Positions 10,578-41,950 are shown, counted from the stretch's first letter. The stretch: DNA of 52,749 nt from an uncultured Candidatus Bathyarchaeia archaeon (GCA_964416035.1 CAYQCQ010000001.1:1-52749), one strand, 5' to 3'. Made by a program: numbers and translations. The notes: generated by a model not told the origin, from the sequence alone.

Positions 10578-10698
10578 GTTGGCGGCCATAGCTGGGAGCT
10601 AGGACCCGTACCCATTTCGAACACGGCAGTGAATCTCCCAGGCGATTCAGGCTGTAGTGTGGTGCGAAAGCCCATGCCAAACTTGGACAGCTGCCAGC
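10578..10698 (+). rRNA. 5S ribosomal RNA (not linked to 16S/23S in this window)
   Basis: - The sequence GUUGGCGGCCAUAGC...CCCAUUUCGAACACGGCAGUGAAUC...GCUGCCAGC matches the 5S consensus core (CAUUUCGAAC.CGG.AGU.AA).
- The 5' and 3' ends form a 9-bp helix I. Confidence 0.9.
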
Positions 10699-10773
10699 TC
10701 CATTCGAATGCCCAATTAAGGTTTATAACAGTCACTTAACAGTCTTAGGGAAGATTCGCCAGAGGCACTTCAG

Positions 10774-14335: not shown

Positions 14336-14419
14336 GATGCAGACAGACCTTCTGCGACACAGATCGACCTAGAGTTAACGCGCCTTCTGAAATAAATATA
14401 AGTGTTGAAAGTGAACTGA

Positions 14420-15958: not shown

Positions 15959-15962
15959 AACA

Positions 15963-17651: not shown

Positions 17652-17666
17652 CCTCGCGATTCGCCG

Positions 17667-17671
17667 TTTTT
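17667..17671 (+). terminator. oligo-T archaeal termination signal after pheT
   Basis: A T5 run lies 16 nt after the pheT stop (cgccgTTTTTc). Confidence 0.35.
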
Positions 17672-17924
17672 CTCAGTAGAGAAGGTTGAAGCGCTCGGTT
17701 GCGACGTGCGAGAACATGCCTACCTCCGAGAGAGCCGACTGAGTGGGGAGTTTCCCCCCTATGACGCTTGGTGTTAGTGTTGTGGGCAACAGAGCAAGCT
17801 TGACCTAACCGTTCAAGCGCGCTCCCAGTTCGCAAGACGTCGCCATTCGAGATGATGAATTGGAAGGCGACATACAGCTTAAAACACATGTTTGAGCAAG
17901 CACCTGTCCCCAGAGAGGATTTCG

Positions 17925-19016
17925 ATGATGGACATTGAGGAGAAACTCAATATCGTTTTGAAAGATACCGAGGAGGTCGTTACTCCTTCTGAACTCAGGA
18001 CGCTGCTAGAAGAGAAAACACACCCGAGAGCGTACTGGGGCTTCGAATGTTCCGGATTCATGCATATAGGCATCGGATTGGTTACTGGCCCAAAGATCAA
18101 GGACATGGTCGATGCGGGCTTTGACTTTATCATATTTCTGGCTGACTGGCATTCTTGGATCAACAACAAACTCGGAGGGAGTATGGAGAACATTCGCGTA
18201 TGCGGAGAATATTTCAAGGACTGCTTTACTGCGTTAGGAGTTCCACGAGACAAGGTCAGGTACATTTGGGCTTCGGAGCTTGCAGGCGATAAGGACTATT
18301 GGGAGAAGGTGATACGCATCGGAAAACTATCTTCGATTCACCGCATCTGGAGGACCATACCTATCATGGGCAGAAGTATGGAAGCCTCAGATGTGGAGGC
18401 CGCGGCCTTGATATACCCGTGCATGCAGGCGGCAGACATATTTCACATGGATCTGGATGTTGCATGCGCTGGCATCGACCAACGTAAAGCCCATATGCTA
18501 GCCAGAGATGTCGCGGAGAAGATCGGCCGAAAGAAGCCTACGTGCCTGCACACACCGCTCGTTTCCGGATTGCTGGAGCCTGCATCCAGAGGAACAGAAA
18601 GATTCGACGAAGATTCTGAAACGGACCTAAAGATAAAATCGAAGATGTCCAAAAGCATCGCTGAAAGCGTCATACTTATCCACGACAGCCCGAACGAGAT
18701 CGATTCCAAGATCAGAGCAGCCTACTGCCCGCCGGGGATCATACAGGGGAACCCGATTTTTGAGATTGCCAAGCATGTAGTGTTCCGAGAGGAAGGCCGG
18801 ATGCGTATTCCTAGGGCCGACAAGTACGGCGGACCAGTCGACTTCCAGTCAGCAGTTCAGCTCGAACAGGAATATGTCAAGATGCGACTGCATCCTCTCG
18901 ACCTGAAGAAGGGTGTGGCAGAGTCCCTGACGCGCATCCTTGAGCCAGTCAGAAAATTCTTTGAGAATCATCCGCGAAACTTGGATACGATGAAGAACAT
19001 CGAGATCACAAGATAG
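17925..19016 (+). CDS. tyrS: tyrosyl-tRNA synthetase (archaeal type)
   Basis: - YWGFECSGFMHIGIGL is HIGH-like and KMSKS is present.
- The LADWHSWINNK and QAADIFH..D motifs are also present.
- I prefer ATG 17925 (MMDIEEK), with GAGAGG 7 nt upstream, over the track TTG 17892. Confidence 0.9.
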   Translation: MMDIEEKLNIVLKDTEEVVTPSELRTLLEEKTHPRAYWGFECSGFMHIGIGLVTGPKIKDMVDAGFDFIIFLADWHSWINNKLGGSMENIRVCGEYFKDCFTALGVPRDKVRYIWASELAGDKDYWEKVIRIGKLSSIHRIWRTIPIMGRSMEASDVEAAALIYPCMQAADIFHMDLDVACAGIDQRKAHMLARDVAEKIGRKKPTCLHTPLVSGLLEPASRGTERFDEDSETDLKIKSKMSKSIAESVILIHDSPNEIDSKIRAAYCPPGIIQGNPIFEIAKHVVFREEGRMRIPRADKYGGPVDFQSAVQLEQEYVKMRLHPLDLKKGVAESLTRILEPVRKFFENHPRNLDTMKNIEITR

Positions 19017-27504: not shown

Positions 27505-28551
27505 TCAGTGACACTTGAGGGAGCCCAAGATCGCTCTAAGATCGCCTATTTGGCCTTTTTCCGCCTTCTCTCCTCTTAGAGGTCCGGTTTTCATACTGAA
27601 TACAAGGGTTCTTCGAGTCTTGTTGCACCACAACCCGTAGCACTCAACTATTCCGTTCTGCCCCGCTGGATCATGCCATTCGCAGATTGAAGCGCGTGCC
27701 TGATGGCCCCTAATCTTCAAGTTCTCCCTTTTCTCCACCTCTCTCAGGGCCGTATCCTGAGGGAGCATCAATGCTTGTCGCATATCTTCCCTGTCGAAGT
27801 GAGCGGAAATAGTGTGCCTGAGACTTGCAGGCGATGTCTCAGTGGTTTCAAAGGATATTGCAACGAATCCTCCTCCAGCTGATTCTTTTCTTGAGATTCC
27901 AAGTATACCTGAGCCCTCTCCACAACGCGTGGCCTCTTCTCGTAGCGAAAACCCAGGCAATAGGTCGACGCGGAAACGAAACTTGCTCGATATCAGTTTT
28001 CCGTCCTCTTTCGCCTTCTTCTCTTCCTCGTCTCTGATCTTCATCTGTTCCTCAATCTTCTGCAGTAGCTTCTCTACGTTCTGTCGCTTGTCAAAGAATT
28101 TGATGTAGTTTACACCTAGGTCTCCGAATACCGCAAGGAATGGCCCGACAAAGACCATTGCCAGTTGGCTTCCGACATAAGACATAGGTTTAATCGACTC
28201 TAGGAACATGATCGCCACCGTTTCCAATCTCCTCTTAATGACTTCCGAAGCAATTCGATCCATCATCCGTGCTTCCTCTTCAGCCGTAAGCTCTCTTGCA
28301 AATGACTCCACAATGGCTCGCCTTGTAGATACGTACGGAGAAACAACACGACCATAAAAGGTTTCGTCAACTCTTTTCGACGCGGGAAAATATGTTCGCA
28401 ACAGGATGAGAGGTGGGCTGTTGATGAAAGCTATCGCTATTATGAGCCTCGACAAGGAGATCGTTGGGTCATCTGAAGCCGAGACAAATCCCACACGGGT
28501 CCCACAAGAGAAATCATATGACTGGCAAATATCTTTATTGCTGGGCGACAT
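27505..28551 (-). CDS. hypothetical membrane-associated protein, divergent from the ChlI-like gene
   Basis: - A 348-aa ORF with hydrophobic segments (LIIAIAFINSPPLILL, SYVGSQLAMVFVGPFLAVFG).
- It also has a charged coiled segment and a Cys-containing C-terminal domain.
- The start is uncertain, because only 19 bp separate it from the chlI-like start. Met96 at 28266 is an alternative. Confidence 0.5.
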   Translation of the reverse strand: MSPSNKDICQSYDFSCGTRVGFVSASDDPTISLSRLIIAIAFINSPPLILLRTYFPASKRVDETFYGRVVSPYVSTRRAIVESFARELTAEEEARMMDRIASEVIKRRLETVAIMFLESIKPMSYVGSQLAMVFVGPFLAVFGDLGVNYIKFFDKRQNVEKLLQKIEEQMKIRDEEEKKAKEDGKLISSKFRFRVDLLPGFSLREEATRCGEGSGILGISRKESAGGGFVAISFETTETSPASLRHTISAHFDREDMRQALMLPQDTALREVEKRENLKIRGHQARASICEWHDPAGQNGIVECYGLWCNKTRRTLVFSMKTGPLRGEKAEKGQIGDLRAILGSLKCH

Positions 28552-28570: not shown

Positions 28571-29611
28571 ATGGGCTACGAACCGCTTGTCTATCCCTTC
28601 ACTGCAATTGTTGACCAGAATGAGCTTAAGCTAGCATTGGTGCTGAACGCAATAAATCCACAGATTGGTGGCGTGTTGATAAGAGGGCAGAAAGGTACGG
28701 GGAAGAGTCTGGCTGTTAGGGCTCTAGCCGATGTCCTGCCGGAGATAGAGACGGTGGAAGGCTGTCCTTTCAACTGCAGCCCCGTGGATCCCACAAACAT
28801 GTGTGAGAGTTGTCTTCGCTTATATGCTGAGAAGAAGATTCGTGTCAATAGGAAGAAGATGAAAGTTGCTACGTTACCGGTTGGTTCAACTGAGGATCGA
28901 GTTGTTGGAAGCCTTGACATAGAGAAAGCAATAAAGGACGGAGTAAGAGCCCTTCAGCCCGGGATTCTCGCAGGAGCGAACCAGAACATTTTGTACGCTG
29001 ATGAGGTAAATCTTCTTCCAGATCATATTGTAGACTGCATCTTGGACGCGGCGGCTTCCGGGTGGAACTATGTTGAACGTGAAGGAGTCAGTGTGTCGCA
29101 TCCGTCTCGCTTCATCCTCATCGGAACCATGAATCCAGAGGAAGGTGAGCTTCGCCCACAGCTTCTGGATAGATTCCCGATTCATGTCACCGTCGAAGGG
29201 ATATTTGATGAGTCGTTGCGCGTTGAGATAATGACTCGAAATCTAGAGTTTGCCGAGGACACGGAGAGATTCGTGGAGAATTTTGAGGCGGACCAGCAGG
29301 CTTTGAGGGAGAAGATAGTCCGAGCCAAAGAGGTAATCAAGAAAGTGGTCTTCCCTTCTGGCTTGCTTAGAGCAATAGCCAGAGCCTGCATCACCCTAAG
29401 TGCTGATGGGCATAGGCCTGACATATCAACAATGAGGTCGGCGAAGACCCTAGTAGCCTTTGAAGGAAGAAACGAGGTCTTATCCGATGATGTTCTCAGA
29501 GTAGCGGTTATGGGGTTAGGTCATAGAACGAGAAGAGGCGGCCTTGAGGAACCGGCCCCCAGAGAGAAGATATTGGAAGCATTCACTGAGGCAATCAAGC
29601 AGGCAGCATAG
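28571..29611 (+). CDS. ChlI/BchI-like AAA+ ATPase (Mg-chelatase I-subunit family)
   Basis: - The N-terminus is [39 protein letters not shown].
- It has [17 protein letters not shown], Walker [10 protein letters not shown], and [15 protein letters not shown].
- It carries a C-x3-C-x8-C-x2-C insert at 28763-28813. Confidence 0.9.
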
Positions 29612-29613
29612 GA

Positions 29614-32175
29614 ATGCAGTCGCATAGCACATGGTCAAGAACTGACCGATCTTTTCCATTCTCAGCGATCGTGGGGCAGGATAAGACGAAGCTGGCGCTG
29701 ATCGTGAGCATAGTAGACCCTGAGATTGGAGGTGTCCTTCTTACCGGGCCGAAGGGAGCAGGAAAATCGCTGATGGCAAATGGCTTGGAAAGGGTTCTAC
29801 CTGAGATCGATGTTGTGGAAGGTTGCCGGTACAATTGCTCTCCAAAAGATCGAGCAAATGTGTGTCAAGAGTGTAGATCCAGACTTCAAAGAGGCGAGGA
29901 GCTGCCGTCAAAGAAGAAGAGAATGCGTATTATTCGCCTCCCGATTGGTGCAACTGAGGACAGAGTCCTTGGCGGAGTGGACCTTGAGAAAGCGGTCGCC
30001 CTTGGATTTATGGTCCTGCAGCCTGGGCTCCTTGCTGAGGCAAACCGGAACATCTTGTACGTTGATCAGATCAATCTTCTTTCCGAACATCTTGTTGACT
30101 CCTTGCTGGACGCGGCCGCGTCTGGTTGGACGCGAGTCGAGAGAGAAGGGCTGTCAACAAGCCATCCATCCCGATTCATATTGATTGGTTCCATGAATCT
30201 AGAAGAGGGAGAGCTGAGACCGCAGATAATGGATCGGTTCTCGCTCCAGGCGTCTGTCTTCTCAGAAGAGAACCTTGAGCTGAGGACGGACATTCTCAAA
30301 CGGAATATGGACTTTGATCAAGATCCTTCATCCGTCATAGAGTTGTACAAGAAAGAAGATGAGCGGCTTACAGAAGCGTTGGTTGAAGCAAGAGACCGGT
30401 TGCGGTCTGTTAAGATTCCTGAGGAGGTAAGCAAGGCCGTGGCTAGGATCTGTAGTGAGCTGAGGGTTGATGGTCATAGACCTGACATCGTTACTTTGAG
30501 GACTGCAAGAGCCATTGCGGCATACGCGGGCAGACTTGAAGTCAGCATGGAGGACATCATGTTGGCGGCCGAGCTTTCCCTAGTGCACAGGTCACGAGGC
30601 TTTGGAACATTGGGCCCACCATCGATGGAGGAGATCCGGGCTTCCCTGCAAAAGGCACTTGTCAAGGAGGCTCAGAGAGCCGTTATTCCTTCGAAGCCGA
30701 AGGTTCAAGGCGAGGTCAGGACACGACTACGGGTTCCTCAGATGGCTCTGAGGCCCGTAAGAAAACTCTCTCAGCGAGAAGTCTTGATAAAACTGATACT
30801 TGCCGTCGCTCTTCCTTTCCTGCATTTTGTGTTGGCGGTAACACTTGTTGCGTTTTTCCTCCTTTCTATACAAGGTTTCCTAGGAGTACCGTTTTCGCGA
30901 GCTATCGACACTTACTGGGTTCACTATTGGATCGCTGTTATTGGAATTTTTCTCTTCCTGATGGTGTTCCTCTATCGACGAAGGGAGACGTTGTACGTTG
31001 CTGACTTGCAGGCTCAGCAGCTTTCAAGGCTTCTTGTTGACAAACAGATCATAGCCGACGAACTATTTCCAGGTATGACATTTGATTTCTTGGAAGGAAC
31101 GCCTCCAACGTACACGATCGTGCCGCTTGAGGTTGAGGTGAAATTGCCTAAGATCGTTGCTTTCCTTGAAAAAGGGTCGAAGACCCTTTCTCACATTTTC
31201 AAGCCGTCCAGAGAGAGCTTCATCAAGAGGGAATTTGTTCCTGTGTTGGAGAGGAGAGTCCGTCCACTTAGACGATACGTTGTGGGGAAGCACTCGAAGG
31301 CTGAGACGAGAGGTCAAGTTGGAAGGTACGTCTCCTATGAGATGCCCCGAAGGGGCCATAAGGATATCGCTTTCGGACCGACAATCCGCGCTGCGGCAAT
31401 CCACTCAGAGCCGATGTGGAAGGGACGTCTCCGCGTACGGATAAGGTCCTCGGACTTGAGGGTCAAGATAAGAGAGCATAAGGTGCCTTTGTCGATTCTC
31501 TTGGTCCTCGACATGAGCGAGTCAATGATCTCGTCCCTTGACAATGTTGGCAAAGCTATCCTGAGTCTGCATAGGACTGCTTCAAGGAAACGAGACAGGG
31601 TTGGTCTGGTAGTCTTCAAGGGAAGTGAAGCAGTTCTTTTGCAGCATCCAACAAGAAACCTTCGACAGGTTGTGAAGAAACTTCTTGATCTGGGTGCGAG
31701 TGACTTCACTCCTCTTGCTGCTGGAATGACGAAAGCGCTTCAAGTCTTGAGGGTTGAGACGACTAGGAATAGAGACTCCATAGCACTCATAGTTATCATC
31801 ACTGATGGAATCGTGAATGTGCCTCTTTCGCAGCCTTTGAGCCTCTCAACTCGGAAGGATTTCACGAACTCAGCTCAGGCTGATGTTGTCGATGTGGCCA
31901 GACTGATCGCCAAGGAAGGGATCAGGACACTGATCATAAACACTGATCACCGGGAGGAACTCTTACCAAAAGATCTGCCTAGCAAGCGAAAGTGTTTGTC
32001 CCCTTCAGGGCTATTGATAGAGGTGGCTAAGATAACTAAAGGTAGGTACTACGGACTTGCCACGGAAGGGGCACAAGGTTCTCCTCAGCTCCGGCGTGAA
32101 GAAGAAGCGGTAACTCTGGCGAGGCCCTTAGTCCAGTATTTGGCCAGGGGCTCTACTAGTGCATTGTACCGTTGA
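29614..32175 (+). CDS. ChlD/BchD-like protein: AAA+ domain, hydrophobic (TM) linker and a C-terminal vWA domain
   Basis: - It starts 2 nt after the chlI-like stop.
- The N-terminal domain is paralogous to the upstream gene, with an intact Walker A (GPKGAGKS).
- The linker has strongly hydrophobic stretches at 30781-30975.
- The vWA domain has MIDAS residues DMSES (31510-31524), then ..T.. and ITDG. Confidence 0.85.
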   Translation: MQSHSTWSRTDRSFPFSAIVGQDKTKLALIVSIVDPEIGGVLLTGPKGAGKSLMANGLERVLPEIDVVEGCRYNCSPKDRANVCQECRSRLQRGEELPSKKKRMRIIRLPIGATEDRVLGGVDLEKAVALGFMVLQPGLLAEANRNILYVDQINLLSEHLVDSLLDAAASGWTRVEREGLSTSHPSRFILIGSMNLEEGELRPQIMDRFSLQASVFSEENLELRTDILKRNMDFDQDPSSVIELYKKEDERLTEALVEARDRLRSVKIPEEVSKAVARICSELRVDGHRPDIVTLRTARAIAAYAGRLEVSMEDIMLAAELSLVHRSRGFGTLGPPSMEEIRASLQKALVKEAQRAVIPSKPKVQGEVRTRLRVPQMALRPVRKLSQREVLIKLILAVALPFLHFVLAVTLVAFFLLSIQGFLGVPFSRAIDTYWVHYWIAVIGIFLFLMVFLYRRRETLYVADLQAQQLSRLLVDKQIIADELFPGMTFDFLEGTPPTYTIVPLEVEVKLPKIVAFLEKGSKTLSHIFKPSRESFIKREFVPVLERRVRPLRRYVVGKHSKAETRGQVGRYVSYEMPRRGHKDIAFGPTIRAAAIHSEPMWKGRLRVRIRSSDLRVKIREHKVPLSILLVLDMSESMISSLDNVGKAILSLHRTASRKRDRVGLVVFKGSEAVLLQHPTRNLRQVVKKLLDLGASDFTPLAAGMTKALQVLRVETTRNRDSIALIVIITDGIVNVPLSQPLSLSTRKDFTNSAQADVVDVARLIAKEGIRTLIINTDHREELLPKDLPSKRKCLSPSGLLIEVAKITKGRYYGLATEGAQGSPQLRREEEAVTLARPLVQYLARGSTSALYR

Positions 32176-32182: not shown

Positions 32183-32569
32183 TCAACAGGGCTTTCCTGT
32201 TGTGAACTTTCTAAGATATGCTCCAAGAATGGCTGTCAGACAGAACAATGCCAGAATCCATAAGGCATACTGAAGAGTTGTTCCTGTAAGTATTATAGAG
32301 CTGAAGGCAAAGTTCACTAGGAAAGCTGATAGAGCAGTCTTCAAACCTGTACGGAGATAGTCGCCGTTTCCTCTTCTGACGACCAGGTATCCGGCGACTA
32401 TACCTCCGAGCGCCACTGCAAAAATTGACACTATTTCCAACTCCAGGGGTAAAACTTCTTCAGGTAACAATGCCTTCACTGCGTACGTGAAGAACAGAAT
32501 AGGTGCATTTGCGAGAAATCCTCCGGCGAGGTATTCGTCGAAACCCGGCCCTTTCTTCTCCAACGTCAT
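32183..32569 (-). CDS. small four-TM membrane protein
   Basis: A 128-aa ORF with four hydrophobic segments and no recognisable family. Confidence 0.55.
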   Translation of the reverse strand: MTLEKKGPGFDEYLAGGFLANAPILFFTYAVKALLPEEVLPLELEIVSIFAVALGGIVAGYLVVRRGNGDYLRTGLKTALSAFLVNFAFSSIILTGTTLQYALWILALFCLTAILGAYLRKFTTGKPC

Positions 32570-32630: not shown

Positions 32631-32646
32631 AATAAAAAAAGGGGGG
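32631..32646 (-). terminator. oligo-T termination signal after the membrane-protein operon
   Basis: On the minus strand, CCCCCC-TTTTTTT-ATT lies 11-26 nt downstream of the stop at 32657. Confidence 0.4.
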
Positions 32647-32656: not shown

Positions 32657-33367
32657 CTAGGCTTTTTTCGCGCCCTTGCTTCGTTCCATGAGGACCGCAG
32701 CTGCGAGGATCAGTATTGCCACTGGTATCAGGTACCATGCCACGCCTGTGGGATAATCTAGTAGGAATTGCATTCTGCCGATCAGCAATGACATTCTCGC
32801 CATGACTGTGAAGCCGAACGCTGCTCCGAAAGCAATCATCATTGTCCATCGGCCGACATGAGAGGCGTACAGCAACGCGCCCTTCTGTTCTCTGGTGAAG
32901 ATAAAGAAGAGCAATGTTCCTATGACGCCGATTGCAATCAGGACTGCGTTGATAGGATAGTCTCCCGCATACCAAGCTGCCTTTGGATTAGTCAATGCAA
33001 TGGTTGAGCGGATTTGGTCGGTGAACTGGCTCCTCATAAGTCCGGCCATAGCGAGCCCTATTCCTGTGCCAACTACGGTTGAGATAGGTATCCTGTAGAC
33101 CCAGAAGTACTTCTTCGAGAAGAAGAAGAAGAATAGCAAACCGACGAGCATCGGTAGAATCCAGTAAGTTTCCCCTTTCGTTACTAGGGGCGTCAACGCT
33201 GTGTCCCAGATGTATTTGCTCGAAATGACGGCTCCGTGTGCGACTGCTAAACCTATGAAGACATGTTCTGCGAGTCTGTACGCTTTGTTCTCCTTGTAGA
33301 AGAAACTGTAGATCATCAACGTAAACGCGGCAGCCATTAAGGTTCCAAGAACCTCAGGTGTTGTCAT
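32657..33367 (-). CDS. polytopic membrane protein (about 7 hydrophobic segments), unknown family
   Basis: A 236-aa ORF whose start lies 2 nt after the upstream stop, making it the fourth gene of a tight operon. Confidence 0.7.
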   Translation of the reverse strand: MTTPEVLGTLMAAAFTLMIYSFFYKENKAYRLAEHVFIGLAVAHGAVISSKYIWDTALTPLVTKGETYWILPMLVGLLFFFFFSKKYFWVYRIPISTVVGTGIGLAMAGLMRSQFTDQIRSTIALTNPKAAWYAGDYPINAVLIAIGVIGTLLFFIFTREQKGALLYASHVGRWTMMIAFGAAFGFTVMARMSLLIGRMQFLLDYPTGVAWYLIPVAILILAAAVLMERSKGAKKA

Positions 33368-33369
33368 GT

Positions 33370-34209
33370 CTACTTCCCCTTCCCATACTTCTTGAGTGCG
33401 AAGCCAATGTTTCCTAGGACTATGAAGACAATGACCAGCAGGTGCGAGAGTGACTGTGCGTCCATCGGAGGTGCCAACGTTCCCTTGTAGCCATAGCGGG
33501 CCAAGAGCACTTCATATTCCGCTGCTCCGGCCAACCCTTCGATTACTCCGCCGATCTGTGTAGGGAAGTAAGGTCTGATTCCAGGCGCACTGACGGCAGT
33601 CACCGCCGTAATTGTAGTCACTTCGTACTGTGCTTGTATCTGCCGTAGCCACTCAGGGACTCCGGGGGTTCCAGATGCGATCGTTATTAGCAACTTGAAA
33701 TCCTTGCCTGCCTTGATGTCTTTCATCATAGGGAGTGCCCCTACGGGGGTTCCATAGTAGTCCTTCGGGCAAGTCGCTTGTACATCTTTGCCTAATGCGC
33801 TCATACCGACCTCTCCGTTTGGAATCCATCCCAAGTTGACAAAGTCGATACCGTATTTGGGATGGTCCTTGGAGGCGCCGAGTACGTCCTTGAAAGCTCT
33901 ATCCATAAATGGAACTCCATCGGCCCAGAAACCAAGTCCGACTATTTTCGCGCCCTTCGCGGACAAGTGAGCAACCGTCGCTTTTGTTGCAGGATACTGC
34001 TCAGGCATTGAGGCAGGCGAATAGTCCATCGAGATAACCACCACATCTCCTGGCTTCACCTTTTCAACTACGTCATAGTATGCTGTCGTCATTGGGCTCA
34101 TCGATATTGGCAGGCCTAGGGGTCTAATCAACGGTAAAGATATCACCAGAAACAGGAGCACGTACATCGCTCTGGGATCAACCTTTTCGAGTTTTCCAAG
34201 AAAGCTCAT
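33370..34209 (-). CDS. bitopic protein with N- and C-terminal TM helices flanking a soluble domain of about 220 aa, unknown family
   Basis: - A 279-aa ORF.
- The N-terminal helix is MYVLLFLVISLPLI.
- The C-terminal helix is LLVIVFIVLGNIGFAL.
- The middle is alpha/beta-like. Confidence 0.7.
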   Translation of the reverse strand: MSFLGKLEKVDPRAMYVLLFLVISLPLIRPLGLPISMSPMTTAYYDVVEKVKPGDVVVISMDYSPASMPEQYPATKATVAHLSAKGAKIVGLGFWADGVPFMDRAFKDVLGASKDHPKYGIDFVNLGWIPNGEVGMSALGKDVQATCPKDYYGTPVGALPMMKDIKAGKDFKLLITIASGTPGVPEWLRQIQAQYEVTTITAVTAVSAPGIRPYFPTQIGGVIEGLAGAAEYEVLLARYGYKGTLAPPMDAQSLSHLLVIVFIVLGNIGFALKKYGKGK

Positions 34210-34221
34210 TTTTCAAGCCTC

Positions 34222-34866
34222 CTAAGCTCCAGGTCCAAGGTATCCGCGTTCTCTACCCAGAAGGACTCTTATGCCCATCGATAGAACCCCTAAGGCCACG
34301 CCTATGAGTATTCCTCGCATTCCAGCCGTGTTTGGAACAGCCATGATCCATGAGATGATAGGCACGAACTCGCTCCAAATAGCTGGTCCGATTGGAGCCC
34401 TTCCTATCATAACGACGACTGCTGATATCAATAGTACTGTCGCCTCAGCTGTTCTTGCTCGAAAGGCCCGGTAGGACGCAGAAGTGATGTAGAACGCTAG
34501 CATCGAGAATATGGTCGAGTCCAAGGGAACGTAGAGATTATCGAACCAGTAAGCGTATGTTGGGTGTGCTGTGAACTTTCCTTCTCCGAGCACCAAGCCG
34601 ACTATCAATAACCCATAGAGTGCTATGAGAAGAGCGAGGCTATTGTGCCATCCTTCCTTGTGCTTGGTGAGTCTTCTCGCATGTATTCTTGTCAATGTCA
34701 CCATGCCAATAACGACTGCGAATGTTGCCGCCACATTGACGAACTTCAGCCAATCAGATACTAGCTGGTTGTAGGATGGGACCTTGATGTAGTAGTCGCC
34801 TATCACTAACATTCCCGCGATGAAGGTGATGACAAGGGGCAAGTTTCTTCGTATTGCTACACTCAT
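34222..34866 (-). CDS. polytopic membrane protein (about 6 hydrophobic segments), unknown family
   Basis: A 214-aa ORF with a 12-nt gap to the next gene. Confidence 0.7.
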   Translation of the reverse strand: MSVAIRRNLPLVITFIAGMLVIGDYYIKVPSYNQLVSDWLKFVNVAATFAVVIGMVTLTRIHARRLTKHKEGWHNSLALLIALYGLLIVGLVLGEGKFTAHPTYAYWFDNLYVPLDSTIFSMLAFYITSASYRAFRARTAEATVLLISAVVVMIGRAPIGPAIWSEFVPIISWIMAVPNTAGMRGILIGVALGVLSMGIRVLLGRERGYLGPGA

Positions 34867-34885
34867 TTTTCATTCCCTCTTTCGA

Positions 34886-35719
34886 TTACCATAGTTTTGC
34901 AAGTAACTTCCACAGATCATTGTTCCCGGCTAGAGATAGCACTATGCCTATTGCCATCATGATAATTGCTATGGCTTTTCCGTAGTCTTGCCCCCATATC
35001 GCACCGATCTGAAGCGGGTCTTTGCTTAAGTAGGCTCCAGCTGCAAGTATTTCCTCTCCTATGAGGCAGTAGTCGCAGGCTGCAACGAAGAATGGGATTT
35101 GGGCGGTGTTAGCGGTTCCTGCCACTTGAATCGCTCCAGCCTGATAGCCTCCCTCTGCGAAAAGCAGAGACTCGGCCCAGAAGCCTCCGATCATTATGTT
35201 GGCCGCTACTTTCTCTCTATGCATTAAACCGACAACGCCTGATGCGTATGCGAATTGAGTGTCTGAAAGGTAGATGATCTTGTCGGGATCAAAGTCATCT
35301 GGCACGCCTGCCTTCACATATGCTTGACGTACTATTTCAGCTGCTAGAGGCTGGACTTGAGGGATTCTGATTGTTGTCCAGAGCGTAGTCTTGTACTTAG
35401 CTGCAAGCTCCGCCACATGTGCGAGTACCGAGAGTCCGGCTAGAGTCTGAGGACCTGTATCCGTGGCCAAACCGGCTATTCCAGGTGAGAAGTGAACGGG
35501 ACGCCCCATCTCTGTTGCTCGGCCTATAGCTTCCTTAATGGCATCCAGACCTGCCATCTTGCGTATAGCTGGTCTTCCGATCCCTTTCATTGTAAGGTAG
35601 AGTGTCACAAGCATTATGGTGGTCATCACGAGCAAGAAGACGAAAGCGCTTTGGCTTGCTGCAGGTATTGGTAGAATTTTTCCTTCCTCCTTTTCATTTT
35701 CCGTTTTTCTTTTGCGCAC
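34886..35719 (-). CDS. membrane protein with terminal TM helices and a Gly/Ala-rich central region, unknown family
   Basis: - A 277-aa ORF and the first gene of the membrane operon.
- It has a GTG start.
- A TATA-like TTTTAAATA (minus) lies at 35779-35771. Confidence 0.65.
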   Translation of the reverse strand: MRKRKTENEKEEGKILPIPAASQSAFVFLLVMTTIMLVTLYLTMKGIGRPAIRKMAGLDAIKEAIGRATEMGRPVHFSPGIAGLATDTGPQTLAGLSVLAHVAELAAKYKTTLWTTIRIPQVQPLAAEIVRQAYVKAGVPDDFDPDKIIYLSDTQFAYASGVVGLMHREKVAANIMIGGFWAESLLFAEGGYQAGAIQVAGTANTAQIPFFVAACDYCLIGEEILAAGAYLSKDPLQIGAIWGQDYGKAIAIIMMAIGIVLSLAGNNDLWKLLAKLW

Positions 35720-35770
35720 TGCTCTTTCCGTATGGGATGGCGTGCGCTTCTTCCCGACTAAGCCTCGGTC

Positions 35771-35779
35771 TATTTAAAA
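35771..35779 (-). promoter_or_regulatory. TATA-box candidate for the four-gene membrane operon
   Basis: TTTTAAATA on the minus strand lies about 52-60 nt upstream of the 35719 start. Confidence 0.35.
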
Positions 35780-35994
35780 CTCTTGCCGTCCAACAGGTGT
35801 CTCTGATCGCTCGGAAAGGCTCACCTTGAACCCCTTTTCATGCTTTAGGGTGGGAAGTATGACCTGAAGTCCTGGTGGGTTCCAAGGCTGAACATTGGCC
35901 TGAGAACGGAAATAACGTAAGGATTCGGATTCTACAAATTCGTGAACTGTGTTCCGAGAAACTCAGACAAGAATGGTGAGAAAGAGACTCAGCC

Positions 35995-37122
35995 TTATTC
36001 CTCTATGATTTCGACGTTGGCTCTCGGAACTATTGCCCTCCGACCGTCTTCTAGCTCTATCTCTACCACTCTAACGTCAGACTCTGTCTCCACCACTTGT
36101 AGCTCAACTGGCAAACTTGCCACACGTCCAATTGCTCCGAAGTATGGATCTCTGATCACTCTGATTGGAGTGCCGGGGGCCATTCCTCCGCTGGTTTCCT
36201 CCTCCTCAACCAGCCCTTTAACCTCAGTGTCCTTCAGGGAAATGACTATCTCTGGTCTGATGACTCCAGCACGAATCTGCGTGGCGCCGTTGATGGACGC
36301 CTCTCTTCCGTCAAACGATTTGAGCAGATTGAAGGTTCTATGGGGCATCTTCATCTTGCCGAATCCTTCAGTGATGATAAGTGTCGTTCCTACTTCCTCA
36401 TGTCCCGTAATCGCAACCCCTATCTCGTAGCCTAGGAACTTGATCAGATCCTCGTCCTCGACACCTCCGACTACTATCCCTTTGACTCCCGTCTTGACGG
36501 CCTTGGCAAGCGCTTCACCTGTGACAAGTGAGCCACCCACAAGGACCTTTCCCTCACATGAAGAATCAATCTTTTCAGGGGTGAGAACCTCATCTGGAGT
36601 ACTTGCAACCATCTTTAGGTTCGCATGGGCTTCTCCACCTACTCCGAAGATACCTTGCACGAGAGCAGCGGGTGTGCGAATCGTCACGCCTCCCTTGGGC
36701 ATCACATGAACGACCTTTCCAGGGATGTACGCCGTTATCTCGACGGGAACGTAAGGTTCTCTCAAGGCAATCTGACCCGTGACTTCAGAGATCAATTCAA
36801 TCGTTCCATCTGACGGCGCGTACACGAAAGACTTGAAAAGGCCGAAGAAAGAGCTGCGTTTCGCGATGAGCTCATTCTTTGTAACTTGCCCCTTCAGCTT
36901 TTTCAGCATGAACGGGCCTATTTCTTCCGGATCCACTCCAAGTGCGTTTGCCACGTTTATCAAGTGGATCTCTCCCGGAACCTGTGTCCTCGCTACGACT
37001 TGGTCGTGCGTTACGGTGTCTCCTTCCTTTACGAGGACCTCCCCTGGTATCGGTAGCCTTCGTGTCTTGCTCACTATCGTGAACCTTTTGACTTTGAGTC
37101 CAGGCGTGTACGCATGTGCCAT
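35995..37122 (-). CDS. cytoplasmic protein with split barrel-sandwich (lipoyl/HlyD-like) motifs, a Gly-rich alpha/beta core and a small C-terminal beta-domain
   Basis: - I prefer ATG 37122 (MAHAYTPGLKV), which lies 1 nt after the upstream TAG (TAGCATG), over the track start at 37164.
- LPIPGEVLVKEGDTVTHDQVVAR and YAPSDGTIELISEVTGQIAL are hybrid-motif halves.
- The Gly-rich core includes VLVGGSLVTGEALAKAVKTGVKGIVVGGV. Confidence 0.7.
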   Translation of the reverse strand: MAHAYTPGLKVKRFTIVSKTRRLPIPGEVLVKEGDTVTHDQVVARTQVPGEIHLINVANALGVDPEEIGPFMLKKLKGQVTKNELIAKRSSFFGLFKSFVYAPSDGTIELISEVTGQIALREPYVPVEITAYIPGKVVHVMPKGGVTIRTPAALVQGIFGVGGEAHANLKMVASTPDEVLTPEKIDSSCEGKVLVGGSLVTGEALAKAVKTGVKGIVVGGVEDEDLIKFLGYEIGVAITGHEEVGTTLIITEGFGKMKMPHRTFNLLKSFDGREASINGATQIRAGVIRPEIVISLKDTEVKGLVEEEETSGGMAPGTPIRVIRDPYFGAIGRVASLPVELQVVETESDVRVVEIELEDGRRAIVPRANVEIIEE

Positions 37123-37123
37123 G

Positions 37124-39031
37124 CTAGCTTCCCCCTTTGACTTCTGGTGACCGAATCCGCTCATAGACGGTTTCAGGGTACGCGTTCATTGCTTGGAACC
37201 ACTCGAGCAATCTCTGTCTTCTTGCTGCTGGATCCTCGGGAATTGAGAGAGGCCTGCCTCTGCAGTCAAAGATCAAGCCGACAACGCCGCCTTCCACTGT
37301 CGTTTCTAGGCCATGGCCCGGTCCTCTTCCCACATCCAAATCCTTCGCGGGTGAGAGAACCAGTTTGGCGGTCTTGCCTGATTCGAGTGGAACCACCTTT
37401 ATCGAACCAAAGGCCACATTCTCCTCCACCACGTGGCCCTCAGCTTCAACCTTGAAGCTCAGAGCGTTTCCCTCTTCCTTAAGTACGCCTCTCGGCGCTA
37501 TGCAGGTTCCCAGCCTCACTAGGCAGTCTTTCTCGAAGATCTCGAGAGCTGCTTGCGGGTGGACGGTCGATAGGACACCGAGATGCGGCATCATAAACAC
37601 ACTATCTTGAGCCAGCCTCGTCAGCCCTTCCGGCTGGAACCCATCTATCAAGAGAAGCGCTGACTGTGCCCGTCTCGGTGCGTGAGAAAGCAACCCTCCG
37701 GTTCCTGCCAAGAAGTCTACGTGCATCATGTCAATATACGTCTCCACCCCAGTTGATTGCTCAAAGATCTCTCCCATGGTTCTTACTCTCTGGATGCCCC
37801 TCAAGCCTCTGGCCAGCTGCTTGTGATGCTGGAAACCCAATCTAAGAGCCTCGCGAGCGACGGCATGTTCTACCATGAGCTCCTCCAAGGTCTGCGGAAT
37901 AGTTGTCGGCCTAATCATCTTGTTTCTCAGCCTGTTGCGGACAAGAACAGGTTCGATGTCAAATGGAATCCATCGCATGATGTTGTCGATCGTAGCCTCC
38001 TTCATGACATTGCAGATGCTATAACTCATCCCCAAGTTGGCGCTGACAGTCCTTACGAACTTTCCATCGTATATTGAGTATACATTCGTGGTCGCTCCGC
38101 CTAAGCCGACCCCGATGACGTTAACTCTCCTCAACTCTGCCAAGGTTCTAAACATTCGGCCTTCCCCTGCAGGAGTCGGCATGATCGGAACGTCTGTCCA
38201 TTTCATCAGCTTGTCATAGCCTGGTGCATGAGACATGACGTGCTCCATGAAAAGCTCATGAATCGCGTCGCGGGCGGGTTCTGTGTTCTCAAGCTCAAGC
38301 ATTGGTCTGATATTGTCTACTATTCTGACAGCAAACTTGTCTCCCAGAGTTTTCGAGACAGCTGTCCTTGCGTCCTTGTTTCCTGCGTAGACGATTGGTA
38401 GCTCATAGCCTATCCCAAGCCGTGCCCTCGGCTCGGCCGCAGCTATCAGCTCGGTGATCTCCGCGACATGGGTAATTGTGCCGCCGTCCGTTCCTCCGGC
38501 AAGTAGGATCATGTCCGGCCTGAGTGTTCTTATTATCTCAATTTTCTGGTGGGGCATCCTTCCGTCATCAACTGCGATTACGTCCATTACGATGGCTCCG
38601 GCGCCGAGGGCGGCTCGCTCAGCGCTTTCCGCAGTCATTGTCTTCACGACTCCGGCAACCATCATCTGGAGACCACCACCCGCACTACTAGTTGTGGCAT
38701 AGAGATCGACACCGTTTCCGTTCGCCCTGCGCGGCCACACGATGCCTTCTTCTTCAAGCAAACGCAGTCCTGTAAGCTCTTCCACTTCTCGAACCGCGTT
38801 TCTGACACCTCTCGTCACGTCTTCGAATGGAGCCTCAACGGTTGTTGGAGCTTCTCCGCTGGAAACAAATCTGTACTCGTTGCTTTTCTTCCTGAAGAGA
38901 CGCGCCTTGGTGGTGGTGCTGCCTACGTCCGTCACCAGCATTATCTCAAATTCTTCCGGCTTCTTTGTTTGGCGCTGGCTCGTAGTTCCTCGCCTCTCTC
39001 TAAACTTGGCTAGACGGATTACCTTGCTCAT
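37124..39031 (-). CDS. GlmL/MutL-like ASKHA (actin-fold) ATPase
   Basis: - MLVTDVGSTTTKARLF is the phosphate-1 motif of the glutamate-mutase-L-like family.
- Later Gly-rich motifs are TTSSAGGGLQMMV, LLAGGTDGG, GVGLGGATTNVYS and LAGTGGLLSH.
- The true start may be Met31 at 38941. Confidence 0.8.
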   Translation of the reverse strand: MSKVIRLAKFRERRGTTSQRQTKKPEEFEIMLVTDVGSTTTKARLFRKKSNEYRFVSSGEAPTTVEAPFEDVTRGVRNAVREVEELTGLRLLEEEGIVWPRRANGNGVDLYATTSSAGGGLQMMVAGVVKTMTAESAERAALGAGAIVMDVIAVDDGRMPHQKIEIIRTLRPDMILLAGGTDGGTITHVAEITELIAAAEPRARLGIGYELPIVYAGNKDARTAVSKTLGDKFAVRIVDNIRPMLELENTEPARDAIHELFMEHVMSHAPGYDKLMKWTDVPIMPTPAGEGRMFRTLAELRRVNVIGVGLGGATTNVYSIYDGKFVRTVSANLGMSYSICNVMKEATIDNIMRWIPFDIEPVLVRNRLRNKMIRPTTIPQTLEELMVEHAVAREALRLGFQHHKQLARGLRGIQRVRTMGEIFEQSTGVETYIDMMHVDFLAGTGGLLSHAPRRAQSALLLIDGFQPEGLTRLAQDSVFMMPHLGVLSTVHPQAALEIFEKDCLVRLGTCIAPRGVLKEEGNALSFKVEAEGHVVEENVAFGSIKVVPLESGKTAKLVLSPAKDLDVGRGPGHGLETTVEGGVVGLIFDCRGRPLSIPEDPAARRQRLLEWFQAMNAYPETVYERIRSPEVKGGS

Positions 39032-39177: not shown

Positions 39178-40569
39178 TTGTCAACGAGAATTGCAGAGAA
39201 GGCGGTCGCGCTCTGCGAAAGGCTCGGAGCCGATTATGCCGACGCAAGAGTTGAACGAACATATTCCACGGACATTAGGCTCATGAAAGACACGTTTGAC
39301 CAAGTAGCCTCCGGAGCCGACCAAGGGCTGGGAATCAGAGTTCTCTACAAGGGAGCATGGGGATTCGGCTCCTCGACTTCACTGGAGCTAAGAAACGTTT
39401 CACAAACCATTCGTGAGGCTTTCAAGGCCGCAAAGGCCACTGCCTCGCGCACCCAAATGAAAGCTCGTCTAGCAGAGGTCTCCCCGGTCAAGGATGTTGT
39501 GACAGCTACTGTGAAGGAGCCAATGCGGTCGGTACCAATAGACAGGAAGATGAAGCTAACCTTGGAGACTTCAGAGGAGGCTACGAAGGTTGACAAGCGA
39601 ATTGCGAGTGTAACAGTGACTTACAGTGATTCCAGCGGAGAGGCCTACTTGGCGACGAGTGAAGGAACACGCTTGATTGGAAGGCCGAGTCGAGGAAGCA
39701 TCGTCATTGTGGCAGTCGCAAGAGAGGGAACAAAAGTGGGGACTATTCGAGAGAGGAACGGAATGCAAGCTGGATTCGAACTGTTCGAGAAGATAGATCC
39801 ACTGGGATTGGCGAGAAGAGCCGCTGAGAGGGCAGTCAAGCTGCTTGAGGCGGTTCCAGCTCCAAGCGGAAGATTCACCGTGATAGCTGACCAGAAACTC
39901 GCCGGGGTGTTTGCGCATGAGGCTGTAGGTCATGCCTCCGAAGCGGATCACGTGATAACCGGGGAATCTGTGCTCAAAGACAAGATTGGTCAAAGAGTGG
40001 GATCTGACCTAGTTACGATGTATGACGATTCTACGTATCCTCAAGGGTGGGGCTCCTCCATTTATGATTCAGAGGGGGTGCCTACGAAGAAACGTCTCAT
40101 CATAGACAAAGGGTTCTTGAGGGGATACATTCTGAACAGGGAGACCGCTGCCGAGTTGAATATGGATCCCAACGGAGGGGCTAGGGCTCAATCCTTCGCC
40201 TATCGGCCAGTGGTCAGAATGAGCAACACTTACCTGACAGTGGGTACTCAGAGCTTTGAGGAGCTCCTTGAAGAGGTAGACCACGGGGTCTACTTGAAGG
40301 GATCCCGCGGAGGACAGGTCGATACAGCCAAGGGAACCTTCCAGTTCAGCGCTGAGGAAGGACACTTGATTGAGAAGGGCCAGTTGACCAAACCGTTAAG
40401 CGATGTCTCGCTTTCAGGAATGACCTTGGAGACACTTATGAATATCGACGGCGTGGCTGACGACTTCCAGATGACCATTGGGCTATGTGGCAAGGCGGGA
40501 CAGGTCGTCACGACTGGAACTGGAAGTCCTCACATAAGAATCAGGAACGCCGTCGTAGGAGGGAAATAG
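39178..40569 (+). CDS. tldD: TldD-family metalloprotease
   Basis: - HEAVGHASEADHV is the TldD HExxxH site.
- It has the GxC motif region near the C-terminus (GLCGKAGQ).
- It has a TTG start. Confidence 0.9.
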   Translation: MSTRIAEKAVALCERLGADYADARVERTYSTDIRLMKDTFDQVASGADQGLGIRVLYKGAWGFGSSTSLELRNVSQTIREAFKAAKATASRTQMKARLAEVSPVKDVVTATVKEPMRSVPIDRKMKLTLETSEEATKVDKRIASVTVTYSDSSGEAYLATSEGTRLIGRPSRGSIVIVAVAREGTKVGTIRERNGMQAGFELFEKIDPLGLARRAAERAVKLLEAVPAPSGRFTVIADQKLAGVFAHEAVGHASEADHVITGESVLKDKIGQRVGSDLVTMYDDSTYPQGWGSSIYDSEGVPTKKRLIIDKGFLRGYILNRETAAELNMDPNGGARAQSFAYRPVVRMSNTYLTVGTQSFEELLEEVDHGVYLKGSRGGQVDTAKGTFQFSAEEGHLIEKGQLTKPLSDVSLSGMTLETLMNIDGVADDFQMTIGLCGKAGQVVTTGTGSPHIRIRNAVVGGK

Positions 40570-40570
40570 C

Positions 40571-41950
40571 GTGAACGAAACTTTGGAGTATGCGCTTAGA
40601 AGATGCATCAAACTAGGTGCTACTCAAGCAGAAGTGTTCGCGATCGACGAGGTTGGCACAAACATCGTGATCGAGAAGAAGCAGGTAAAGATTGGCCAAG
40701 TGAAGCGTGATCGCGGCATGGGCATAAGGGTCTTGGTCAAGAAAGATGGTGGAGCCTCAACAGGATTCAGCTATGTGACAGACTTCTCTAGGAGTACTGT
40801 GATGGAGGCGGTGGAGAAGGCGGTCACAACAGCCAAGGTGAAGCGCGCTGATAAAGATCTCAGGTCCTTTCAGGAAAAGGCTAGAACTCGAAAGGTCGCA
40901 AACATATTTGACAAAAGGATTCCCCGGACCGATCCGTCTGACCTGATCGAGGTTGGAAGGTCGATGTTAGAGCAAGCGTGCGAGGATTCGAGAGTATCTA
41001 CAGTCAGCGGCAGTGTGCATGCGGGCTTCGGAGAAACCTCCGTCGCCAACTCACTAGGGGTCTCAGGCAGCTACAGGTCGACTGGGTTCGGCGGCCATAT
41101 GTATGTGGTGGCTGAATCTGGGGGATCCGTAGGCGTTGGCTGGGAAAGCCACTCTTCAAGCCACTACGAGGGCAGGAAACTAGTCGCAGCGGCAGGCTAC
41201 GCCGCCGAGACAGCGATAAAGCAGCTGAATCCGAGGCCCCTCGAACCGGGAATCTATGACGTTGTTGTTGATCAGGACGGATTGGCAGACCTCTTCATGA
41301 ACACTCTTGTTCAGCAGATTAGAGCGGACTTGGTTCAGAGGAACCAATCCCCGCTTACAGGAAAGATTGGATCTGAAGTGGCTTCGGAGAATGTCACCTT
41401 GATGGACGATCCGAGTGTTCCGAGAGCGCTTGGCTCAAAACCTTTCGACTCTGAAGGATGCCCGACCAATCCTAGGCCGATAGTAGAGAAAGGTGTCCTC
41501 CGAACTTTCTTGCACAACTCGTATACAGCCAACAAAGAAGGCGTTGAGAATACAGGTAACTCCATGAGATACATCATGTTCGGAACGAGATCGGAGTACG
41601 CCCTCGAACCAAGCATAGGTCCACACAATCTAGTTCTGAAACCGGGCAAGGGAAGGAGAGAAGATCTGATCCGAGAGGTCAAGAACGGAATCCTGGTCAG
41701 AGGATTCATCGGAGCCCATACTTCAAACGTTCAGAGCGGCGACTTTTCTCTTGCGCTAGACTGCATCTTCAGAATAGAGAATGGGGAGTTGACCTTCCCT
41801 GTCAAGCAGGCCATGATAGGGGGAAACATGCCGAGCATCCTGAGGCAGATTCAGCTTGCGGCTGCAAATTCAAAGCAGGTGACGATGGGTCCAGGGATGA
41901 CGTTGATTTCACCGACCATCCTGATAGAGAAGCTCACCGTAGCGGCATGA
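40571..41950 (+). CDS. pmbA: PmbA/TldE-family partner of TldD
   Basis: - It starts 1 nt after the tldD stop.
- It is homologous in architecture but lacks HExxxH, as expected for PmbA. Confidence 0.85.
   Translation: MNETLEYALRRCIKLGATQAEVFAIDEVGTNIVIEKKQVKIGQVKRDRGMGIRVLVKKDGGASTGFSYVTDFSRSTVMEAVEKAVTTAKVKRADKDLRSFQEKARTRKVANIFDKRIPRTDPSDLIEVGRSMLEQACEDSRVSTVSGSVHAGFGETSVANSLGVSGSYRSTGFGGHMYVVAESGGSVGVGWESHSSSHYEGRKLVAAAGYAAETAIKQLNPRPLEPGIYDVVVDQDGLADLFMNTLVQQIRADLVQRNQSPLTGKIGSEVASENVTLMDDPSVPRALGSKPFDSEGCPTNPRPIVEKGVLRTFLHNSYTANKEGVENTGNSMRYIMFGTRSEYALEPSIGPHNLVLKPGKGRREDLIREVKNGILVRGFIGAHTSNVQSGDFSLALDCIFRIENGELTFPVKQAMIGGNMPSILRQIQLAAANSKQVTMGPGMTLISPTILIEKLTVAA

Follow-up and report, generated by a model that had tools for sequence, protein, structure and literature searches.

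Some actin-fold ATPases bind bitopic membrane proteins, as exemplified by PilM with PilN/O and by FtsA, and translocation motors driven by Hsp70 are known as well. Relatives within the same ASKHA superfamily (actin/Hsp70/sugar-kinase fold) include GlmL, a protein of ∼460 amino acids (aa) that consists of the ASKHA core only, and the HyuA subunit of hydantoinases, which acts with HyuB as its obligate second subunit, while among importers the energy-coupling factor (ECF) systems of group II combine one cytoplasmic ATPase set with several dispersed or tandem membrane modules. Here, we describe a locus of an uncultured Candidatus Bathyarchaeia archaeon in which an ATPase of the ASKHA fold is encoded next to four membrane proteins. 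It occupies positions 32657-39031, minus strand, of a stretch of 52,749 nucleotides (nt; GCA_964416035.1 CAYQCQ010000001.1:1-52749), which as a whole is referred to as the window, and its six genes are named A to F in the order of transcription. The locus is one copy of a widespread set of seven to eight genes, composed of a cytoplasmic part (X, A and B) and a membrane part (C-D-E-F, to which G is added in Bathyarchaeia). On genomic grounds, we propose with a probability of roughly 0.4 that this set may constitute an ATP-coupled membrane system for the uptake or processing of amino-acid or peptide derivatives. As a gene set it appears categorically new, matching no characterised system, and the function assigned to it is a proposal.

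Joint occurrence of the ATPase and membrane genes

The comparison has been based on a C-seeded scan with one genome per GTDB species, which has yielded at least 564 confirmed relatives and from which 79 loci have been retained, and on a B-seeded set, from which 80 metagenome loci have been retained. Mapping with a hidden Markov model (HMM) of X and the comparison of gene orders have covered 164 loci in all, for which the gene calls are crude. It has been shown in this material that the modules co-localise far above chance, in many gene orders and phyla: the gene orders that combine X, A-B and C-D-E-F number at least five, and their hosts are Bathyarchaeia, Bacillota (with two cultured species), Ignavibacteria and Eisenbacteria, among others. 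The order X-C-D-E-F-A-B is seen in L001, in L002 and, as a compact operon, in the cultured Alkalicella caledoniensis and Anaerobranca gottschalkii, X-A-B-C-D-E-F in L075, L076, L124, L137, L142 and L155, C-D-E-F-X-A-B in L060, L077 and L023, and A-B-[DUF483]-X-C-D-E-F in the complete Bathyarchaeota genome CP070649.1. The window and L088 share A-B-C-D-E-F with X at some distance, and tandem copies of the quartet are included in X-CDEF-CDEF-A-B (L059) and A-B-CDEF-CDEF-CDEF (L078). In L066 and L076, gaps of only 6-10 nt separate the modules, and in L164 a 995-aa fusion of A with B (10001-12988) is directly followed by C, D, E and F.

The association has also been evident from counts. Among the B-seeded loci, C-D-E-F has been detected in 8 of the 15 well-flanked loci with A vs 0 of the 20 without A (Fisher p = 2.7e-4), where 3 of the 8 positive loci are close relatives of the window and the effective sample is therefore smaller. 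Proximity scored within 10 kb has placed A-B beside C-D-E-F in 13 of the 79 C-seeded loci. One A-B set lies beside several divergent C-D-E-F paralogues in L059, L078 and L155, and within single metagenome-assembled genomes (MAGs) a C-D-E-F-alone locus has been found along with an X-A-B-linked one (L007 and L059 in JBMNFB, L058 and L049 in JAJZPE).

Because the gene set has been kept while its order was shuffled, and because A and B occur as a Rosetta-stone fusion, comparative genomics provides strong evidence that A and B are obligate partners predicted to form a complex, and that X-A-B and C-D-E-F would work together, whereby one X-A-B set can accompany several C-D-E-F copies. The functional link between the ATPase pair and the membrane quartet that the initial annotation had suspected from this one locus is thus supported by recurrent gene orders in two domains of life, by the association in the B-seeded loci and by the fusion preceding a quartet. 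At the level of the single locus the coupling is facultative and has the appearance of one X-A-B set shared by many C-D-E-F copies, since most C-D-E-F loci have no A-B nearby and A-B or B also occurs in housekeeping neighbourhoods.

Components of the system and their arrangement in the window

A (37124-39031, minus strand) is a 635-aa ASKHA ATPase that has been matched to the Pfam family MutL (PF13941) over profile positions 1-450 with E = 1.2e-119 and 400.5 bits (cut-off 27). Public annotation accordingly lists its homologues as 'glutamate mutase L' or 'TIGR01319 family'. All curated models nearer to GlmL have, however, scored below their cut-offs, namely GlmL itself (NF040745, 221.9 vs 475), Or-4 (NF040744, 206.5 vs 600) and glmL_fam (TIGR01319, 161.8 vs 204.05), and PF01968 (hydantoinase A) has likewise remained at 18.8 bits, under its cut-off of 22.9; a single-sequence search has found no relative of A among PDB sequences. 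The alignment of 28 archaeal and bacterial homologues (mean identity 61%) has revealed the invariant motifs D35-x-G-S-T-T-x-K42, T114-SSAGGG, G179-G-x-D-G-G, G311-GATT and G443-x-GG, so that the DVGSTTTK phosphate-1 motif and the serial Gly-rich motifs noticed at first sight are confirmed. The same homologues have retained a beta-rich C-terminal extension of ∼130 aa (residues ∼504-635) with its own invariant positions (G568/G570/G572, R591-G-R-P594 and W611). All close homologues measure 590-670 aa, and A exceeds GlmL, with its ASKHA core only, by ∼170 aa.

The gene neighbourhood of A differs from that of GlmL as well. No mutase, B12-binding or radical-SAM gene has been found among 20 other open reading frames (ORFs) scanned in the window (all flanking genes at 24202-46213 and the largest ORFs elsewhere), among the top families of ∼230 neighbour proteins in related loci, or in six Pfam-annotated contexts including L160-L164. 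The absence of such enzymes from the locus, remarked upon in the initial annotation, therefore holds for the ORFs scanned, and a B12 mutase adjacent to the locus in relatives, which had been named as the sign of a conventional GlmL role, has not appeared in the contexts examined. Membership of A in the Pfam MutL family does not extend to the curated GlmL family, from which A departs in scores, context and architecture, and the label 'glutamate mutase L' is misleading. Its earlier placement in the GlmL branch stands as far as the end-to-end Pfam match goes; it does not hold against the curated cut-offs and the additional conserved domain.

B (375 aa, 35995-37122, minus strand; the ORF extends to 37164, with the ATG at 37122) directly follows A, and the start of B is translationally coupled to the stop codon of A through the junction TAGCATG (37126-37120), which a G-rich Shine-Dalgarno-like run precedes. 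A barrel-sandwich hybrid domain at the N-terminus of B is followed by a Gly-rich alpha/beta domain in the centre and a KOW/SH3-like barrel at the C-terminus. This architecture had been read from the sequence in the initial annotation and has been borne out by an AlphaFold2 (AF2) model (pLDDT 85, pTM 0.72; beta-rich N-terminus, central alpha/beta part and small terminal beta-barrel), by Foldseek and by family matches. AF2 models were made for B and C and compared with the PDB by Foldseek, which for B has returned matches at the level of domains only (KOW of NusG/Spt5, and the sandwich-barrel hybrid motif of T. maritima NusG and of RNA polymerase Si3). No whole-chain PDB analogue has emerged from Foldseek, and no significant PDB match from sequence or profile searches; B belongs to no Pfam family. 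Its N-terminal domain has shown weak matches to RnfC_N and Biotin_lipoyl in the window protein and in 34 of 55 family members, together with weak recurrent matches to NQRA_N, and the central domain a weak match to the RraA-like (swivelling beta/beta/alpha) fold. Many Gly-rich loops and polar residues are invariant throughout the family. The B profile has collected 3,392 clusters (50% identity) among 1.84 billion representative proteins. Identities between archaea and bacteria amount to 54-60% for B in the B-seeded loci and to 55-60% for A and B together, and neither B nor C has been found on plasmids.

Among the 56 B-seeded loci with enough upstream sequence, 27 carry A immediately upstream of B. 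Fusions of the two have been encountered as two families of 995 and 1003 aa (P0379/P0491), each assembled repeatedly from independent samples. Two bacterial lineages carry such fusions, among them Candidatus Ozemobacteraceae (HNW34126.1). B in the company of neither A, X nor C-D-E-F is confined to two or three tight bacterial clades with housekeeping synteny, the arrangements being B-omp-accA-era (omp, outer membrane protein gene), lpxB-B, B-prfA-prmC and B between a DUF2723 glycosyltransferase and an aminotransferase gene; loci with B and no A are L087, L090-L095, L109, L112, L114, L116 and L121-L150. A B subfamily of 435-475 aa (P0403, P0409, P0410, P0447, P0449, P0460, P0477, P0482 and P0507) contains an insertion of ∼78 aa near profile position 52, within the barrel-sandwich domain. 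Tandem duplication of the type A-B-(B)-X-(X)-A-B has been observed in several bacteria (L042, L049, L063, L131, L104, L126 and L159), and the close relatives L080-L086 possess a second, convergent A'-B' pair that is absent from the window.

X is a protein of ∼90-140 aa with a hydrophobic segment and a charged coiled-coil tail, which belongs to no Pfam family and precedes A or C in many loci. In the HMM mapping over the 164 loci, every X has coincided with A-B, and none has turned up at loci of C-D-E-F-alone paralogues. The window contains a homologue at ∼28006-28305 (minus strand), detected by tblastn with 15 X proteins at E = 1e-10 to 1e-16. It is embedded in a predicted ORF of 348 aa (27505-28551, minus strand) with a putative extension of ∼165 C-terminal residues that is absent from other X proteins, and it is located ∼4.3 kb beyond F, past a divergent pair of genes for a MoxR/ChlI-like AAA+ protein and a protein with a VWA domain. 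G, an accessory membrane protein of 128 aa specific to Bathyarchaeia (32183-32569, minus strand), follows F and the T-run behind it. Its assignment is supported by synteny in relatives, with the orders C-D-E-F-G-A'-B' in L082, L085 and L086 and F-G-X-A-B in L100, and a G homologue adjoins A in a complete Bathyarchaeota genome (L160); matches of G to DUF5518 and TIGR04086 are weak and below cut-off.

In the spacer between B and C (275 nt, 35720-35994, minus strand), the motif TTTTAAATA (35771-35779, same strand) precedes the start of C by 52 nt and is a putative archaeal TATA-like box, present as a single copy in the window where 0.15 occurrences are expected by chance. C (277 aa, 34886-35719, minus strand) is a membrane protein of family DUF6754 (PF20539, E = 1.5e-87, 293.4 bits at a cut-off of 27, positions 13-251 of 257). 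In its AF2 model (pLDDT 89), two transmembrane helices (TM), residues 20-45 and 235-264, enclose a Rossmann-like alpha/beta domain formed by residues 56-232. The counts of Lys and Arg average 6.1 on the domain flanks vs 0.5 and 1.4 at the termini, from which the soluble domain is predicted to be cytoplasmic by the positive-inside rule. No other membrane subunit is as conserved as C, whose alignment has 36 invariant columns, including many charged ones. Its model has no fold match in the PDB (Foldseek TM-score <0.35), nor is there a match by sequence or profile. DUF6754 comprises >4,800 relatives and has no known function, and no publication mentioning it has been found in the library searched.

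D (214 aa, 34222-34866, minus strand), assigned by its synteny after C, is a polytopic protein of 5-6 TM with the conserved motif YRAFRAR, for which sub-threshold matches to TMD0_ABC (15 of 51 members, best E = 2e-4) and a weak match to PycTM among the PADLOC models (E = 3e-4) have been obtained. E (279 aa, 33370-34209, minus strand) begins with a signal-anchor, continues with a soluble domain of ∼220 aa, which by its topology is probably extracytoplasmic, and ends with a C-terminal TM and a Lys-rich tail. F (236 aa, 32657-33367, minus strand), the last gene of the quartet, encodes a polytopic protein of ∼6 TM with a one-off LspA match. The initial annotation had recognised all four as membrane proteins, two of them polytopic, which is correct for D and F; its distinction between the other two has given way to a common plan, as both C and E have terminal TMs around a soluble domain. 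Searches of Pfam, NCBIfam and PDB have yielded no relatives of D, E and F, even when weak Pfam/NCBIfam matches were pooled over ∼50 members per family, no ABC_tran or permease family has matched any of the seven proteins, and paralogy of C with E or of D with F has not been detectable. A match of the membrane proteins to a known transporter family, which would have spoken for a familiar system, has thus not been obtained with Pfam, NCBIfam and PDB profiles.

The order C-D-E-F has been kept in essentially all 79 C-seeded loci, the hosts being Bacillota (many Fermentithermobacillaceae-like MAGs, Symbiobacterium), Bathyarchaeia, Culexarchaeia, Cloacimonadota, Ignavibacteria, Eisenbacteria and others. 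Many genomes harbour more than one copy, with a tandem array of four in L014, three copies in L078 and no fewer than five in MAG JBMNFA. Between paralogues that stand in tandem within a locus, the median identity is 52% for E, compared with 65% for C, 60% for D and 61% for F. Matches to group II intron domains (RF02001, RF01998) lie between tandem C-D-E-F copies of a Bacillota MAG (L004:8943-9242).

Within the window, the gaps C/D, D/E and E/F are 19, 12 and 2 nt, and a C6-T7 run past F (32634-32646, minus strand) may serve as an archaeal oligo-T terminator or as a pause site. Six co-directional genes, their coupled first pair, the gaps, the spacer and its box have all been recovered as initially annotated, and two points need amendment: the C6-T7 run is present at 32646-32634, the range 32631-32646 having been slightly too wide, and the six genes, though real, are not the whole unit, which extends past 32657-39031 to include G and the displaced X homologue, both previously overlooked. 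The base composition is unremarkable at ∼50% GC throughout, and the window is archaeal, its assignment to Bathyarchaeia being based on the nearest named homologues, which are proteins of Candidatus Bathyarchaeota/Bathyarchaeia MAGs. The divergent pair between F/G and the X homologue (28571-32175, plus strand) encodes the MoxR/ChlI-like AAA+ protein of 346 aa and a ChlD-like protein of 853 aa with an AAA lid, hydrophobic segments and the VWA domain, and it is not kept beside the system in relatives. Divergent from A lies a TldD/PmbA metallopeptidase pair (39178-41950, plus strand), an arrangement kept in the close relatives L080-L086, where an Lhr-type helicase and a class I/II aminotransferase follow. 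Further away, the window contains a lone 5S rRNA gene (10578-10699, plus strand, 79.5 bits) and, at 13223-19016, two class I Trp/Tyr-type aminoacyl-tRNA synthetases with PheRS alpha and beta, near which an M24 peptidase and a DnaG-like Toprim protein are encoded.

Proposed function and competing explanations

Hints at the substrate have come from neighbouring genes. Around A-B, peptidases of families S58 (three), C26 (two), M20 (two), M55, M81 and TldD/PmbA have been noted, along with asparaginase II, amidohydrolases and a peptide-binding substrate-binding protein; around C-D-E-F, M20 peptidases, amidohydrolases and proteins of the dihydrodipicolinate synthase (DHDPS) family recur, with five or four of 150 each. 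In L164, genes for an aldehyde dehydrogenase and a class III aminotransferase are situated directly downstream of C-D-E-F. A T-box leader (RF00230, 105 bits at a gathering score of 93) directly precedes C in L040 (14137-14416, minus strand), and a reading of its alignment suggests that the specifier is probably UAC (Tyr). The Rfam scan has covered the window and ∼570 kb of related loci; near C-D-E-F it has detected no riboswitch or leader other than this T-box, and in the window nothing but the 5S rRNA has reached the gathering score. Many C-D-E-F-alone loci (L033, L005, L036, L035, L007, L018 and others) feature 300-630 nt upstream of C, regions with no Rfam match and no motif common beyond close relatives; lineage-specific leaders are possible there, and a common upstream leader motif has not been found.

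In the transport system that we propose, C, D, E and F would form a hetero-oligomeric membrane complex, in which the polytopic subunits D and F may provide the solute pathway, the outward-facing domain of E would bind the substrate, and the A-B complex could dock on the conserved cytoplasmic Rossmann-like domain of C. Acting with B, and possibly anchored through X, A would then couple the binding and hydrolysis of ATP to uptake or to an immediate ATP-dependent capture of the substrate, and a single X-A-B set would serve several C-D-E-F paralogues of different specificity, comparable to an ECF energiser with its many S components. A function of E in substrate recognition and of C as the conserved cytoplasmic interface fits the finding that E diverges most among tandem paralogues. 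The substrates are probably compounds derived from amino acids or peptides. The bolder claim that this would define a new class of primary-active transporters, in which an ASKHA ATPase and not one of the ABC, P-type or V/F-type energises a four-subunit translocator and the ATPase module is shared by several substrate-specific membrane modules of anaerobic bacteria and archaea, appears unlikely to us at present.

Several observations weigh against the proposal. No A-B has been located within 10 kb of 66 of the 79 C-D-E-F loci. Independent occurrence of the two modules in other genomes had been named in the initial annotation as an argument against a joint system, and the outcome is mixed: the modules are linked, yet most quartets stand apart from A-B. 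X-A-B has also been found in housekeeping context (tsaEBD-rimI, UDG) with no C-D-E-F, and B alone has been kept in two or three bacterial clades beside accA, era, prfA and lpxB, so that A-B or B may have a role independent of C-D-E-F. For D and F, comparison with transporter families and PDB chains has revealed no similarity, transport and a contact of A-B with C are predictions from genomic data, and energisation of solute transport is not known for any actin-fold ATPase. The enrichment of peptidases is modest and derives from the crude gene calls, and the sole T-box sits on a degraded copy (a 244-aa C and an 81-aa fragment of F) beside an ISL3-like transposase.

Among the alternatives, the one that survives best takes C-D-E-F as a self-sufficient (secondary) transporter or membrane enzyme and A-B as a soluble ATP-dependent enzyme of the hydantoinase/oxoprolinase type, where A would phosphorylate or activate an amide or carboxyl group, B would be catalytic, and the substrate would be delivered by C-D-E-F or be a common metabolite. 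The position of A in the superfamily branch of hydantoinase A with its weak PF01968 match, the enzyme-like invariant loops and polar residues of B, the frequent amidases and peptidases nearby, and the occurrence of A-B with no C-D-E-F in housekeeping contexts, or of B alone in some clades, are all consistent with such an enzyme. Yet the PF01968 score has stayed under its cut-off and no HyuB-like partner has been found, while X travels with A-B and contains a hydrophobic segment, which suggests an action at the membrane. Moreover, conservation in C-D-E-F peaks in a cytoplasmic domain, in keeping with the docking of a conserved partner, and one A-B beside several divergent quartets, as in L059, L078 and L155, would be odd for an enzyme with a single substrate; we regard this explanation as serious, if unlikely.

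A machine other than a transporter, in which X-A-B would operate as an Hsp70/actin-like module on a C-D-E-F complex for assembly, protein or peptide handling, signalling or membrane remodelling, would account for the ASKHA fold of A with its conserved C-terminal beta-rich domain, for the protein-interaction-type barrel-sandwich and KOW/SH3 domains of B, for the domains that C and E expose on opposite sides of the membrane, and for the missing transporter homology. The hosts, however, include monoderm Bacillota, diderm Ignavibacteria and bacteria with a type IX secretion system, and archaea, and this variety of envelopes argues against an envelope-specific machine; the many paralogues and the catabolic enzymes in their neighbourhood resemble substrate-specific metabolism or transport, and evidence of A polymerisation is lacking, which makes this reading rather improbable. 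That two unrelated operons have become adjacent by chance or by lineage-specific synteny would agree with the spacer and TATA-like box of the window and with the many quartets that have no A-B nearby, and it is contradicted by the recurrence of the modules in at least five gene orders in archaea and several bacterial phyla, the 6-10 nt gaps, the significant association and the fusion directly ahead of a quartet, so that it has become very unlikely. A conventional role of A as chaperone or reactivase of a B12 mutase encoded elsewhere, beside unrelated membrane genes, has the full-length PF13941 match and the public name in its favour and is largely refuted by scores under all curated GlmL, Or-4 and TIGR01319 cut-offs, by the extra conserved domain of the 635-aa protein, by the absence of mutase, B12-binding and radical-SAM families from the ORFs scanned in the window, from the top neighbour families and from the six annotated contexts, and by a constant partner that is B and neither MutS nor MutE, which leaves it the least credible of the explanations considered.

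If A-B indeed drives the membrane complex, a new way of energising membrane transport would be at hand, and part of the uptake capacity would be explained in anaerobes of sediments and digesters that ferment protein and amino acids, such as Bathyarchaeia, Cloacimonadota and Fermentithermobacillaceae-like Bacillota. Large and old families are involved, with at least 8,000 matches for each of the homologue searches of A and B, and four of the seven core proteins (X and A-F) have no Pfam family and one is a domain of unknown function, whereas G has none above cut-off. The question is testable, as Alkalicella caledoniensis and Anaerobranca gottschalkii are cultured hosts with a compact operon.

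Comparison with known systems

In the library searched, nothing relevant has been published on DUF6754, PF13941 and TIGR01319, on 'glutamate mutase L' or on ASKHA in connection with glutamate mutase, and as the family, PDB and literature searches have given no characterised match, the suggestion in the initial annotation that the system is uncharacterised and apparently undescribed is supported. Characterised transporters, respiratory complexes and defence systems show no recognisable sequence homology to any component. An anti-phage defence system has been rejected after the PADLOC models matched no component beyond the weak PycTM match to D.

The nearest relatives of A itself are GlmL/MutL and Or-4, which share the ASKHA fold family and the phosphate-1, phosphate-2 and adenosine motifs. 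A differs by its additional C-terminal domain, by the absence of mutS/mutE or a B12 enzyme alongside, and by its constant pairing with B, with which it is at times fused, usually with X and often beside C-D-E-F. Hydantoinases, 5-oxoprolinases and acetone carboxylases of the HyuA/HyuB type resemble A-B in combining an ASKHA-type ATPase with an obligate second subunit and in having amidase-type neighbours, but PF01968 has reached 18.8 vs 22.9 bits in A, and B has no Hydantoinase_B match.

With the respiratory subunits NqrA and RnfC, the system has in common the barrel-sandwich domain at the N-terminus of B and the placement of a peripheral cytoplasmic subunit beside small polytopic or bitopic membrane subunits. 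However, B has no whole-chain structural match to NqrA or RnfC among the top 50 Foldseek matches listed and no flavin or Fe-S motifs; D and F lie outside the Rnf/Nqr families and are not homologous to each other, and E has no FMN_bind match. An Rnf or Na+-NQR complex has accordingly been rejected, the barrel-sandwich domain of B being the only part that matches, and weakly so, next to unrelated membrane subunits.

The cytoskeletal and chaperone-type ATPases PilM, FtsA and Hsp70 offer a general parallel in the pairing of an ASKHA ATPase with membrane proteins that have single terminal TMs and, for Hsp70, in an ATPase domain followed by a C-terminal beta domain as in A; no sequence or fold match to them has been detected, and nothing in the neighbourhood suggests components of a pilus, divisome or protein import machinery. 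The ECF importers of group II are similar in genomic logic, since here, too, one cytoplasmic ATPase set per genome or locus is found with several dispersed or tandem membrane modules. An ABC or ECF transporter has been rejected on the grounds that neither a P-loop ABC ATPase nor matches to permeases or to T or S components are present, and the likeness is one of analogy only: the system described here combines an actin-fold ATPase with four membrane subunits, vs one or two in ECF importers, and these have no homology to EcfT or S components.

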